Source: Escherichia coli (lineage in GTDB: Bacteria > Pseudomonadota > Gammaproteobacteria > Enterobacterales > Enterobacteriaceae). From it: DNA of 64,000 bases. The stretch lies in assembly GCF_003334815.1 (NCBI RefSeq), contig NZ_QOWO01000003.1. One strand, written 5' to 3'. Position 1 is the first letter of the stretch. Each line of letters starts with the position of its first letter. Shown one piece after another: positions 44,255 through 48,556 of the stretch. The notes under the pieces were generated by a model. The model searched no databases and was not told the origin of the DNA. It worked only from the letters and a program-made list of their open reading frames with translations. The translations under genes were made by a program, and so were the position numbers.

Positions 44255-44821
44255 ATGAGCGTATTACGTTCGTTATTAACTGCCGGGGTGCTGGCGTCGG
44301 GCCTGTTGTGGAGCCTGAACGGAATTACCGCTACCCCTGCGGCGCAGGCATCTGATGATCGCTACGAAGTTACCCAGCAGCGTAACCCGGATGCCGCCTG
44401 TCTGGACTGTCATAAACCAGATACCGAAGGTATGCATGGAAAACATGCGTCCGTTATCAACCCGAATAACAAACTGCCGGTCACCTGCACCAACTGTCAC
44501 GGCCAGCCATCACCGCAACACCGCGAAGGGGTGAAAGATGTGATGCGCTTTAACGAGCCGATGTACAAGGTTGGAGAGCAGAACAGCGTCTGTATGTCCT
44601 GTCATCTGCCGGAACAGTTGCAAAAAGCGTTCTGGCCGCACGATGTCCACGTAACCAAAGTGGCGTGCGCCAGCTGCCATTCCCTGCATCCACAGCAAGA
44701 TACGATGCAGACGTTAAGTGACAAAGGACGGATTAAGATTTGCGTCGATTGCCACAGCGATCAGCGCACCAATCCGAACTTTAACCCGGCGTCTGTTCCG
44801 TTGCTTAAGGAGCAGCCATGA
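44255..44821 (+). CDS. nrfB: Pentahaem cytochrome c NrfB (188 aa)
   Basis: [26 protein letters not shown]...; five CXXCH motifs (CLDCH, CTNCH, CMSCH, CASCH, CVDCH). Confidence 0.95.
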
Positions 44822-45489
44822 CCTGGTCTCGTCGCCAGTTTCTCACCGGCGTCGGCGTGCTGGCAGCCGTCAGCGGCACCGCAGGGCGCGTGGTGGCGAA
44901 AACGTTGAATATCAATGGGGTGCGTTACGGCATGGTGCATGACGAGTCGTTATGCATCGGCTGTACCGCCTGTATGGATGCTTGTCGGGAAGTGAACAAG
45001 GTGCCGGAAGGCGTCTCGCGCCTGACGATTATTCGTAGCGAGCCGCAGGGCGAATTTCCTGATGTGAAATATCGCTTCTTCCGTAAGTCTTGCCAGCACT
45101 GCGATCATGCGCCGTGCGTTGACGTCTGCCCGACCGGTGCGTCTTTTCGCGATGCTGCCAGTGGGATTGTCGATGTTAATCCGGATCTCTGCGTCGGTTG
45201 TCAGTACTGCATCGCCGCCTGTCCGTACCGCGTGCGCTTTATCCATCCGGTCACGAAGACGGCGGACAAATGCGATTTCTGCCGTAAGACCAATTTGCAG
45301 GCCGGTAAGTTGCCCGCGTGCGTTGAAGCTTGCCCGACCAAGGCGCTGACGTTTGGCAATCTGGACGATCCCAACAGTGAGATTTCGCAACTGCTGCGCC
45401 AGAAGCCCACTTACCGCTACAAGCTGGCGCTGGGAACCAAACCGAAGCTGTACCGCGTACCGTTTAAATACGGGGAGGTGAGCCAATGA
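44818..45489 (+). CDS. nrfC: Tat-exported 4Fe-4S ferredoxin-type subunit NrfC (223 aa)
   Basis: [20 protein letters not shown] twin-arginine signal; several CxxCxxC...CP cluster motifs; ATGA overlap with nrfB. Confidence 0.95.
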
Positions 45490-46442
45490 CGCAGACTTCC
45501 GCATTTCATTTTGAATCGCTGGTGTGGGACTGGCCGATTGCCATCTACCTGTTTTTGATTGGTATTTCTGCTGGTCTGGTGACGCTGGCCGTGCTGTTAC
45601 GTCGCTTCTACCCGCAGGCGGGCGGTGCAGACAGTACGTTGCTGCGCACCACGCTGATTGTCGGGCCGGGCGCGGTGATCCTCGGTCTGTTGATCCTCGT
45701 CTTCCACCTGACAAGACCGTGGACCTTCTGGAAGCTGATGTTCCACTACAGTTTTACCTCGGTGATGTCGATGGGGGTGATGCTGTTTCAGCTCTACATG
45801 GTGGTGCTGGTGCTGTGGCTGGCGAAAATCTTTGAACATGATTTGCTTGCCCTGCAACAACGCTGGTTGCCGAAGCTGGGGATCGTGCAAAAGGTTCTGA
45901 GCCTGCTGACGCCCGTTCATCGCGGACTGGAAACATTGATGCTGGTGCTGGCGGTGTTGTTGGGGGCTTATACCGGCTTTCTGCTGTCGGCGCTGAAATC
46001 GTATCCGTTCCTCAATAACCCGATCCTGCCGGTGCTGTTCCTCTTCTCCGGCATCTCGTCCGGTGCGGCGGTGGCGCTGATCGCCATGGCGATACGCCAA
46101 CGCAGTAACCCGCATTCCACGGAAGCGCAGTTTGTACACCGTATGGAAATCCCTGTGGTATGGGGTGAAATCTTCCTGCTGGTGGCGTTTTTTGTCGGTC
46201 TGGCGCTGGGCGATGACGGTAAAGTTCGTGCGCTGGTGGCGGCATTAGGTGGCGGTTTCTGGACGTGGTGGTTCTGGCTTGGTGTCGCCGGGCTGGGGCT
46301 GATTGTGCCAATGCTGCTCAAACCGTGGGTCAATCGCAGTTCCGGCATTCCTGCCGTGCTGGCGGCGTGTGGGGCCAGTCTGGTCGGCGTGTTGATGCTG
46401 CGCTTTTTCATTCTCTACGCCGGACAGTTGACGGTGGCGTAA
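45486..46442 (+). CDS. nrfD: Membrane quinol-oxidising subunit NrfD (318 aa)
   Basis: [47 protein letters not shown]...; polytopic NrfD/PsrC family. Confidence 0.95.
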   Translation: MTQTSAFHFESLVWDWPIAIYLFLIGISAGLVTLAVLLRRFYPQAGGADSTLLRTTLIVGPGAVILGLLILVFHLTRPWTFWKLMFHYSFTSVMSMGVMLFQLYMVVLVLWLAKIFEHDLLALQQRWLPKLGIVQKVLSLLTPVHRGLETLMLVLAVLLGAYTGFLLSALKSYPFLNNPILPVLFLFSGISSGAAVALIAMAIRQRSNPHSTEAQFVHRMEIPVVWGEIFLLVAFFVGLALGDDGKVRALVAALGGGFWTWWFWLGVAGLGLIVPMLLKPWVNRSSGIPAVLAACGASLVGVLMLRFFILYAGQLTVA

Positions 46443-46521
46443 GCCAGAAAAGAGGTGGTTTCTGGACGTATTCCTTCCTGAAGTCGGTTTTCTGGCGTTG
46501 TTGTTAAGTCTCGGGGTCAAC

Positions 46522-48180
46522 GTGTTGACCCCGTTGACGGCCTTCGCGGGAGTGCGGTTGCGCTGGCCTGCCATGATGCGACTCACTTGCATCGGCATTC
46601 TGGCGCAGTTCGCGCTCCTGCTGCTCGCCTTTGGCGTACTGACGTATTGTTTTCTCATCAGCGATTTCTCGGTCATTTATGTCGCGCAACATAGCTATAG
46701 CCTGCTGTCGTGGGAACTCAAGCTGGCAGCGGTGTGGGGCGGCCATGAAGGTTCGCTGCTGCTTTGGGTGCTGCTGCTTTCCGCCTGGAGCGCGCTGTTT
46801 GCCTGGCATTATCGGCAGCAAACCGATCCGCTATTTCCGCTGACGTTAGCCGTTTTATCTCTCATGCTCGCCGCACTGCTACTGTTTGTGGTGCTGTGGT
46901 CCGATCCCTTCGTGCGGATATTTCCACCAGCAATCGAAGGCCGCGATCTCAATCCGATGCTGCAACATCCCGGTCTTATCTTTCATCCACCGCTGCTTTA
47001 CCTTGGCTATGGCGGTTTGATGGTAGCGGCGAGCGTGGCGCTGGCGAGTCTACTGCGCGGCGAGTTTGATGGTGCCTGCGCCCGAATTTGCTGGCGCTGG
47101 GCGTTACCTGGCTGGAGTGCATTAACGGCGGGGATCATCCTCGGTTCCTGGTGGGCCTACTGCGAACTCGGCTGGGGCGGCTGGTGGTTCTGGGATCCGG
47201 TGGAAAACGCCTCTTTATTACCCTGGCTTTCTGCCACTGCGCTGCTGCACAGTTTGTCCCTGACACGCCAGCGGGGGATTTTTTGCCACTGGTCGCTGTT
47301 GCTGGCGATAGTTACTCTGATGCTGTCGCTGCTGGGCACCTTAATTGTCCGTTCTGGCATTCTGGTTTCGGTTCATGCGTTCGCGCTGGATAACGTCCGC
47401 GCCGTGCCGTTGTTCAGCCTGTTTGCACTGATTAGCCTTGCGTCTCTGGCTCTGTATGGCTGGCGAGCGCGGGACGGTGGCCCGGCGGTGCATTTTTCGG
47501 GGTTATCGCGGGAAATGTTAATCCTCGCTACGCTGTTGCTGTTTTGCGCAGTGCTACTGATCGTGCTGGTGGGAACGCTTTATCCGATGATTTACGGCCT
47601 GCTGGGCTGGGGACGCCTCTCCGTTGGCGCGCCGTATTTTAACCGCGCGACGTTACCGTTTGGTCTGTTGATGCTGGTGGTGATTGTGCTGGCGACGTTT
47701 GTCTCTGGCAAACGCGTGCAGCTTCCGGCGCTGGTAGCTCATGCGGGCGTGCTGTTATTTGCCGCTGGGGTCGTGGTCTCCAGCGTCAGCCGTCAGGAGA
47801 TCAGCCTGAATTTACAGCCGGGTCAGCAGGTGACGCTGGCAGGATACACCTTCCGTTTTGAGTGCCTCGATCTACAAGCCAAAGGCAATTACACCAGCGA
47901 AAAAGCGATAGTGGCACTGTTTGACCATCAGCAACGCATTGGTGAACTGACGCCGGAGCGGCGTTTTTATGAAGCACGCCGTCAACAAATGATGGAACCG
48001 TCAATTCGCTGGAACGGCATCCATGACTGGTATGCGGTCATGGGGGAGAAAACTGGGCCGGATCGTTACGCTTTTCGTTTGTATGTACAAAGCGGTGTGC
48101 GCTGGATCTGGGGGGGAGGATTGTTGATGATTGCGGGCGCATTGTTAAGCGGATGGCGGGGGAAGAAGCGCGATGAATAA
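46522..48180 (+). CDS. nrfE: Cytochrome c haem lyase subunit NrfE (CcmF-like). Start uncertain: GTG 46522 gives 552 aa, TTG 46498 gives 560 aa, conserved sequence extends further upstream
   Basis: CcmF-like polytopic protein (...FLISDFSVIYVAQHSYSLLSWELKLAAVWGGHEGSLLLWVLLLSAW... with WGGWWFWDPVEN haem-handling motif). See finding on the N-terminus. Confidence 0.85.
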   Translation: MLTPLTAFAGVRLRWPAMMRLTCIGILAQFALLLLAFGVLTYCFLISDFSVIYVAQHSYSLLSWELKLAAVWGGHEGSLLLWVLLLSAWSALFAWHYRQQTDPLFPLTLAVLSLMLAALLLFVVLWSDPFVRIFPPAIEGRDLNPMLQHPGLIFHPPLLYLGYGGLMVAASVALASLLRGEFDGACARICWRWALPGWSALTAGIILGSWWAYCELGWGGWWFWDPVENASLLPWLSATALLHSLSLTRQRGIFCHWSLLLAIVTLMLSLLGTLIVRSGILVSVHAFALDNVRAVPLFSLFALISLASLALYGWRARDGGPAVHFSGLSREMLILATLLLFCAVLLIVLVGTLYPMIYGLLGWGRLSVGAPYFNRATLPFGLLMLVVIVLATFVSGKRVQLPALVAHAGVLLFAAGVVVSSVSRQEISLNLQPGQQVTLAGYTFRFECLDLQAKGNYTSEKAIVALFDHQQRIGELTPERRFYEARRQQMMEPSIRWNGIHDWYAVMGEKTGPDRYAFRLYVQSGVRWIWGGGLLMIAGALLSGWRGKKRDE

Positions 48181-48556
48181 AGGGCTTCTCACGCTACTGC
48201 TGTTATTTACCTGTTTTGCGCACGCTCAGGTCGTAGACACCTGGCAATTCGCCAATCCGCAACAACAGCAACAGGCGTTAAATATTGCCAGCCAGTTACG
48301 TTGTCCGCAGTGCCAGAATCAAAACTTACTGGAATCCAACGCGCCGGTGGCTGTCAGTATGCGCCATCAGGTTTACAGCATGGTGGCGGAGGGGAAGAAC
48401 GAAGTCGAAATCATTGGCTGGATGACCGAACGCTACGGAGATTTTGTTCGCTATAACCCACCGTTAACGGGTCAGACGCTGGTGTTATGGGCGCTGCCAG
48501 TGGTGTTGTTACTGCTGATGGCACTGATCCTCTGGCGAGTGAGGGCGAAGCGATGA
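48173..48556 (+). CDS. nrfF: CcmH-like thiol-disulfide oxidoreductase NrfF (127 aa)
   Basis: [18 protein letters not shown] signal; [17 protein letters not shown] motif; overlaps nrfE end by 8 nt. Confidence 0.93.

Follow-up and report, generated by a model that had tools for sequence, protein, structure and literature searches.

Ordinary stop/start overlaps in the nrf operon of Escherichia coli and a probable CTG start codon of nrfE

The nrf operon of Escherichia coli (nrfA to nrfG) raises the question of how genes whose stop and start codons share nucleotides are translated, and why the junction between nrfD and nrfE departs from this pattern. We analysed these junctions in a 64,000-nucleotide (nt) stretch of contig NZ_QOWO01000003.1, referred to below as the window, in which overlaps also occur among the mdt, act and als genes. 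The overlaps are typical of E. coli operons and represent ordinary junctions between neighbouring genes of one operon; they are nothing new in kind and illustrate a well-described rule of operon architecture. As judged from sequence comparison, nrfE probably initiates at a rare but conserved CTG codon at position 46462, which was missed by the K-12 reference annotation. The explanation as a whole, i.e. ordinary operon junctions, termination-reinitiation and an nrfE start at this CTG, is one in which we place considerable confidence.

The window represents a K-12-like E. coli chromosome, to which MG1655 positions 4,245,000-4,309,190 aligned at 99.97% identity. A 10-kb query around the nrf junctions matched all 5,426 complete E. 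coli genomes, several of them at 100%. Genes were positioned by transfer from two annotations, that of MG1655 and that of an E. coli record in RefSeq (PGAP), and the junctions were then read directly from the sequence. The nrf genes are located as follows:

42774-44210, plus strand: nrfA
44255-44821, plus strand: nrfB
44818-45489, plus strand: nrfC
45486-46442, plus strand: nrfD
46522 (K-12) or 46462 (PGAP) to 48180, plus strand: nrfE
48173-48556, plus strand: nrfF
48553-49149, plus strand: nrfG

Apart from nrfD/nrfE, the junctions between them consist of these elements, with overlaps given as negative distances:

44211-44254, plus strand: spacer of 44 nt between nrfA and nrfB, no overlap, containing a hairpin and the nrfB Shine-Dalgarno sequence GGAG
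44807-44812, plus strand: nrfC Shine-Dalgarno sequence AAGGAG, within nrfB
44818-44821, plus strand: ATGA shared by the nrfB stop (44819-44821) and the nrfC start (44818-44820), -4
45486-45489, plus strand: ATGA shared by the nrfC stop (45487-45489) and the nrfD start (45486-45488), -4
48173-48180, plus strand: ATGAATAA, comprising the nrfF start (48173-48175) and the nrfE stop (48178-48180), -8
48553-48556, plus strand: ATGA shared by the nrfF stop (48554-48556) and the nrfG start (48553-48555), -4

At four of the six nrf junctions the downstream start codon thus overlaps the upstream stop codon, in the form ATGA or ATGnnTAA. Direct reading bore out the sequence-only reading, which had placed ATGA overlaps at nrfB/nrfC, nrfC/nrfD and nrfF/nrfG and an 8-nt overlap at nrfE/nrfF. 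Its statement that nrfD/nrfE is the only junction of the operon that does not fit had to be revised, since nrfA and nrfB do not overlap either. The overlaps outside the nrf operon all lie on the minus strand, where the order of transcription is yjcH before actP and alsE before alsK:

38263-39912, minus strand: actP
39909-40223, minus strand: yjcH
39909-39912, minus strand: ATGA, yjcH stop and actP start, -4
54463-55929, minus strand: mdtP
55926-57977, minus strand: mdtO
57977-59008, minus strand: mdtN
55926-55929, minus strand: ATGA, mdtO stop and mdtP start, -4
57975-57979, minus strand: TAATG, mdtN stop and mdtO start, 1-nt overlap (-1)
61681-62610, minus strand: alsK
62594-63289, minus strand: alsE
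62594-62610, minus strand: alsE stop and alsK start, 17-nt overlap (-17)

The same pattern had been claimed for these genes. It was recovered as ATGA for mdtO/mdtP and actP/yjcH, and the 17-nt overlap of alsK and alsE was found as described; for mdtN/mdtO the overlap stood but its form did not, as the two genes share a single nucleotide in TAATG. At -17, alsE/alsK falls outside the usual overlap classes (-8, -4, -1).

Overlaps of this kind are not particularly frequent in the window. Among its 36 same-strand adjacent gene pairs, 8 (22%) lie within -8 to +6 nt of each other, compared with 707 of 2,987 such pairs (24%) in the E. coli genome, where -4 pairs are the most numerous, ahead of -1 and then -8 (Huber et al. 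2023, PMC10666635). Against this published rate there is no enrichment (binomial P = 0.64), so that the description of the overlaps as 'dense' was overstated. The nrf operon alone, with four of six, exceeds the all-pairs rate (P = 0.03), which is nothing unusual in an operon whose products form complexes.

One genome per species was scanned with NrfE, which yielded eight orthologous nrfA-G operons: a divergent E. coli, E. albertii, two Citrobacter, Enterobacter, Pectobacterium, Pluralibacter and Serratia oryzae. ATGA was present at nrfB/C and at nrfC/D in all eight, and at nrfF/G in all seven operons that possess nrfF. The -8 overlap of nrfE/F was found in five (the divergent E. coli, E. albertii, Citrobacter FP75, Enterobacter and Pectobacterium), and in Serratia this overlap is -13. 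Aliivibrio has no overlap at nrfB/C and nrfC/D, the start being located 1 nt past the stop at both. In Citrobacter werkmanii NBRC 105721 (6001-8214 of the extracted locus), nrfE and nrfF are in one frame with no stop between them, an apparent NrfE-NrfF fusion that could be natural or an assembly error.

If a ribosome, on reaching the end of the upstream gene, immediately begins again at the overlapping start codon (termination-reinitiation), the outputs of the nrf genes would be tied into two blocks, nrfB-C-D and nrfE-F-G. We take the first to be the electron-transfer module and the second the haem lyase, and we likewise assume the NrfBCD, NrfEFG and MdtNOP blocks to be subunits of complexes. 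That the genes nrfA to nrfG are carried on a single transcript is established background. The overlapping genes leave no space for a terminator or promoter between them, and a simple consensus scan for promoters and terminators across 42300-49600 returned no more sites than shuffled sequence. From their geometry only, and in textbook manner, we infer coupling of these pairs, such that nrfB-C-D, nrfE-F-G, mdtN-O-P and yjcH-actP look like coupled blocks.

Published measurements make this plausible: four of five native E. coli -4 pairs tested were coupled, and the fifth, bioBF, was initiated de novo (Huber et al. 2019, PMC6728339), and overlapping pairs are over-represented among genes for subunits of heteromeric complexes (Huber et al. 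2023, PMC10666635). The pairs in these studies resemble those of the window in the organism, in the -4 ATGA, -1 TAATG and -8 geometries and in having the Shine-Dalgarno sequence within the upstream gene; none of them comes from this window, and the alsE/alsK overlap is longer (17 nt).

The alternative that survives best, which we nevertheless regard as rather unlikely, is that the overlaps are neutral by-products of compaction or mutation, with de novo initiation at each gene's own Shine-Dalgarno sequence and little or no coupling. Loss of a stop codon, for example, would extend a gene into its neighbour, and an ATGA once formed would be hard to leave. Several observations fit this alternative and weigh against the reading that we prefer. 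Energies of the duplex with the 16S rRNA 3' end identified a Shine-Dalgarno sequence inside the 3' end of the upstream gene for most overlapping starts, ranging from -7.0 to -15.3 kcal/mol for actP, nrfC, nrfD, nrfF, nrfG, mdtP and alsK; the strongest is GGGGAGGTGA, upstream of the nrfD start (-15.3 kcal/mol). De novo initiation could therefore contribute or even dominate, as it does in bioBF. The frequency of overlaps in the window is merely the genome average. Conservation also overstates selection for coupling, because a change of TGA to TAA would destroy the ATG, and ATGA is hence difficult to mutate away. The products of alsE and alsK are not known to form a complex.

On the other side stand the four coupled pairs out of five, the fit of the Nrf and Mdt blocks to the enrichment among complex subunits, and the conservation of the junctions. 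The junctions are preserved from Escherichia to Serratia although synonymous sites nearby vary, and this is better evidence than frequency that they matter. Translational coupling by termination-reinitiation thus remains our preferred explanation. Among the pairs examined, mdtO is the member most likely to depend strictly on reinitiation, its Shine-Dalgarno sequence being nearly absent (57980-57999, duplex energy -1.9 kcal/mol) and its start lying in the 1-nt TAATG overlap with mdtN.

The sequence-only reading had further proposed that the junctions constrain where genes can start and support the chosen start codons, and this was upheld. In seven genes (nrfC, nrfD, nrfF, mdtO, mdtP, actP and alsK), no canonical start precedes the overlapping ATG within the open frame. 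The exception is nrfG, which has an additional upstream ATG at 48487; the frame is closed at the equivalent position in Enterobacter and Serratia, so that only the ATGA start is conserved for this gene. The encoded N-termini fit as well. NrfC begins with MTWSRRQFL directly after the overlapping start, and its SRRQFL we read as a twin-arginine (Tat) signal; the hydrophobic N-termini of NrfB, NrfF and ActP we regard as signal-peptide-like, and the LISGC motif of MdtP presumably as lipoprotein-signal-like. The overlaps therefore validate the starts of nrfC, nrfD, nrfF, nrfG, mdtO, mdtP, actP and alsK.

This leaves the nrfD/nrfE junction, with the following elements:

46440-46442, plus strand: TAA stop codon of nrfD
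46451-46458, plus strand: Shine-Dalgarno sequence AGAGGTGG, 3 nt before the CTG, its GAGG core ending 6 nt before the CTG
46462-46464, plus strand: CTG, the likeliest initiation codon of nrfE, giving a NrfE of 572 amino acids and lying 19 nt past the nrfD stop
46522-46524, plus strand: GTG, the nrfE start in MG1655, giving 552 amino acids and a 79-nt gap, probably 20 codons too short

The misfit is mostly a matter of the uncertain nrfE start, i.e. an annotation problem and not an odd junction, and it is probably explained by an nrfE start at CTG 46462. RefSeq PGAP already annotates the gene from this codon. From 46432, where the nrfE frame opens, the first ATG, GTG or TTG to be met is the TTG at 46498, which lies past the PEVG motif of the protein. 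As a side observation, the divergent E. coli strain GPEC1186 carries AGT in place of GGT at the equivalent of 46486, a Gly to Ser change within this motif.

Profile comparisons agreed with the longer protein. Residues 2-572 of NrfE matched positions 1-573 of NCBIfam NF007691 (1159.6 bits, cutoff 394), residue 5 aligned to position 2 of TIGR03145, and TIGR00353 was matched with 835 bits (cutoff 569); the 572-residue NrfE thus matches the CcmF/NrfE haem lyase family over its full length, with scores beyond the curated cutoffs. A search of solved structures with NrfE gave a single match, Thermus CcmF 6ZMQ, which starts from residue 46 and is uninformative on the N-terminus.

N-termini were surveyed among the best 80 CcmF/NrfE loci of the genome-collection scan. 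A canonical start, mostly ATG or GTG, was found 1-8 codons before an N-terminal [P/A/S]E-x-G motif in 71 of them, the distance being mostly two codons (e.g. M-I-P-E-L-G), and another four had a variant of the motif directly after M. Only five loci, from Escherichia, Citrobacter and Enterobacter, were without a canonical start before the motif, and in each of them the fifth codon before the proline is CTG. The aligned codon is GTG in Serratia and TTG, followed by ATG, in Pectobacterium; in Pluralibacter, GTG occurs one codon downstream of the aligned position. NrfE hence shares the N-terminal motif and the end-to-end NF007691 match with its family, but where most of the family has a canonical start near the motif, these five loci, a record labelled Salmonella enterica and a read-archive contig have CTG instead.

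The latter two sequences came from a homologue search with the first 120 NrfE residues, which otherwise returned mainly fragments. The CTG recurs in two E. coli lineages, E. albertii, two Citrobacter, the Salmonella-labelled record, Enterobacter and the read-archive contig, and inspection of the three E. coli junctions that diverge most among 5,421 showed no change in it. The nucleotides between the nrfD stop and the CTG read GGTGAT(T/A)T in Citrobacter, the Salmonella-labelled record and Enterobacter, and TAAGGTGAT precedes the CTG in Citrobacter and Enterobacter. The Shine-Dalgarno duplex of CTG 46462 amounts to -10.3 kcal/mol, compared with -6.2 for GTG 46522, -3.9 for TTG 46498 and a window median of -6.5. 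Across the 20 codons from the CTG to the K-12 GTG, seven sequences differed by synonymous changes only at 8 codons and by conservative changes at 4, and the variable sites fell 7, 1 and 9 times on the first, second and third codon position.

That nrfE instead starts at GTG 46522 or TTG 46498, behind an untranslated spacer of 55-79 nt whose conservation reflects an RNA or regulatory element, seems improbable to us. Such a start is used by the MG1655 annotation and by many database entries, and CUG is a poor initiator: in reporter assays it reached about 1-2% of AUG, none has been confirmed in E. coli, and the only two confirmed non-canonical starts of this organism, in infC and pcnB, are both AUU (Hecht et al.). 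Neither canonical codon is conserved, however. TTG 46498 is replaced by CTG or CTA in E. albertii, C. werkmanii, Enterobacter, the read-archive contig and two of the three divergent E. coli, and GTG 46522 by CTG in Enterobacter sp. BIGb0383. Both have the weaker Shine-Dalgarno duplexes given above, and the 20 codons upstream display a protein-coding substitution pattern and align with the motif that follows directly on a canonical start in nearly all other loci surveyed. The spacer, moreover, folds no better than shuffled sequence (46395-46515, z = +0.29), so that a structure hiding the Shine-Dalgarno sequence and the CTG is not indicated and coupling through RNA structure gains no support.

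A frameshift or readthrough from nrfD that supplies the NrfE N-terminus as a NrfD-NrfE fusion can practically be dismissed: the nrfE frame is already open over the last 8 nt of nrfD in E. coli (46432-46439), but a same-frame TGA lies between the nrfD stop and the CTG, two codons before the latter, in Citrobacter, the Salmonella-labelled record and Enterobacter, so that neither an upstream start nor an nrfD frameshift can supply the conserved NrfE residues there, the strong Shine-Dalgarno sequence is correctly spaced from the CTG, and no slippery motif is visible in CGGTGGCG.

Initiation at CTG 46462 accordingly remains the preferred reading of nrfE, and it has to be weighed against some further points besides the weakness of CUG as an initiator. 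A full-text literature search found no paper that discusses the nrfE start, and NF007691 may include PGAP proteins that already use the CTG, which would make its support partly circular. The read-archive contig has a TTG in the nrfE frame, located three codons ahead of the CTG and in an 8-nt overlap with the nrfD stop. A canonical start of nrfE that overlaps nrfD may thus have been regained in this lineage, where the CTG need not be the initiator. The contig itself (enterobacterial, from SRR22190980, positions 590-620) has the nrfD stop and the CTG 1 nt apart, in GCATAATCTGGAC.

Databases hold at least five versions of the E. coli NrfE N-terminus, of 572, 560, 552, 540 and 535 amino acids, of which the 572-residue form is the standard RefSeq protein, found on at least 1,000 contigs. 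The CTG start is therefore an existing database call, here supported comparatively, and it is the K-12 reference annotation that is probably wrong. The UniProt entry also starts at the K-12 site and would be 20 residues short if the CTG is the true start. The K-12 nrfE product (552 amino acids) very probably lacks 20 residues, about half of a hydrophobic N-terminal segment that is probably the first membrane helix, and whoever relies on the reference coordinates to clone or model NrfE would work with a truncated protein. In common with the known AUU starts, nrfE has a near-cognate codon, a good Shine-Dalgarno sequence, conservation in related genera and a plausibly low level of expression; it differs in that the codon is CUG, the support is comparative and no autoregulatory logic is known.

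A distance of about 20 nt nearly abolishes reinitiation (Huber et al. 2023, PMC10666635). A weak CUG placed at such an inefficient distance would give a low output of the haem lyase, largely independent of nrfD translation. The spacing from the nrfD stop to the CTG is only 8 nt in Citrobacter, the Salmonella-labelled record and Enterobacter and 1 nt in the read-archive contig, and for this reason some nrfD-nrfE coupling may persist there. The junction pattern, consisting of nrfA, the 44-nt spacer, nrfBCD, the 19-nt spacer with CUG, and nrfEFG, matches the functional split of the operon.

Taken jointly, it appears likely that the CUG start is conserved in Escherichia, Citrobacter, Enterobacter and probably Salmonella, that it acts as an attenuator and that the K-12 annotation is 20 residues short. 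If so, nrfE would be the first chromosomal gene of E. coli for which a CUG start has strong comparative backing, to be placed beside infC and pcnB, and its start codon would be a built-in attenuator that keeps the amount of NrfEFG haem lyase far below that of the structural proteins NrfABCD. NrfE might then be sensitive to the level of initiation factor 3 (IF3), and confirmation would add a rare natural case of a near-cognate start codon that sets subunit ratios within an operon.

The spacer between nrfA and nrfB contains a GC-rich hairpin, CCGCCTCGCAAGGGGCGG, at about 44217-44236 (-18.1 kcal/mol, z = -2.3), which is not followed by a T-run. All eight enterobacterial operons preserve the hairpin sequence, and the element may serve to stabilise or process the mRNA and in this way set the ratio of nrfA to nrfB-G. 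No pair with compensatory changes on both sides was observed among the eight operons, which leaves a structural role unproven. A scan of 38000-64000 with Rfam gave no match in the nrf operon and identified only the selenocysteine insertion sequence (SECIS) of fdhF and copies of the naRNA4 family of the repetitive extragenic palindromic (REP) type.

In addition to these junctions, a few features elsewhere in the window were recorded. The gene yjcS (59511-61408, minus strand) lacks 88 bp relative to MG1655 at about 60337-60344, with 8 bp shared at the join; its length is not a multiple of three and its frame contains 13 stops, which makes it a pseudogene in this strain. The SECIS_2 match (87.1 bits, 53799-53853, minus strand) is a known feature inside fdhF (52118-54265) and accounts for reading the in-frame TGA of this gene as selenocysteine. 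The naRNA4 matches (RF02564) comprise one copy in the acs-yjcH spacer (40315-40385) and four tandem copies between gltP and yjcO (50921-51330), where the copy number of the array differs from MG1655, as seen in alignments with a periodicity of 113 nt.

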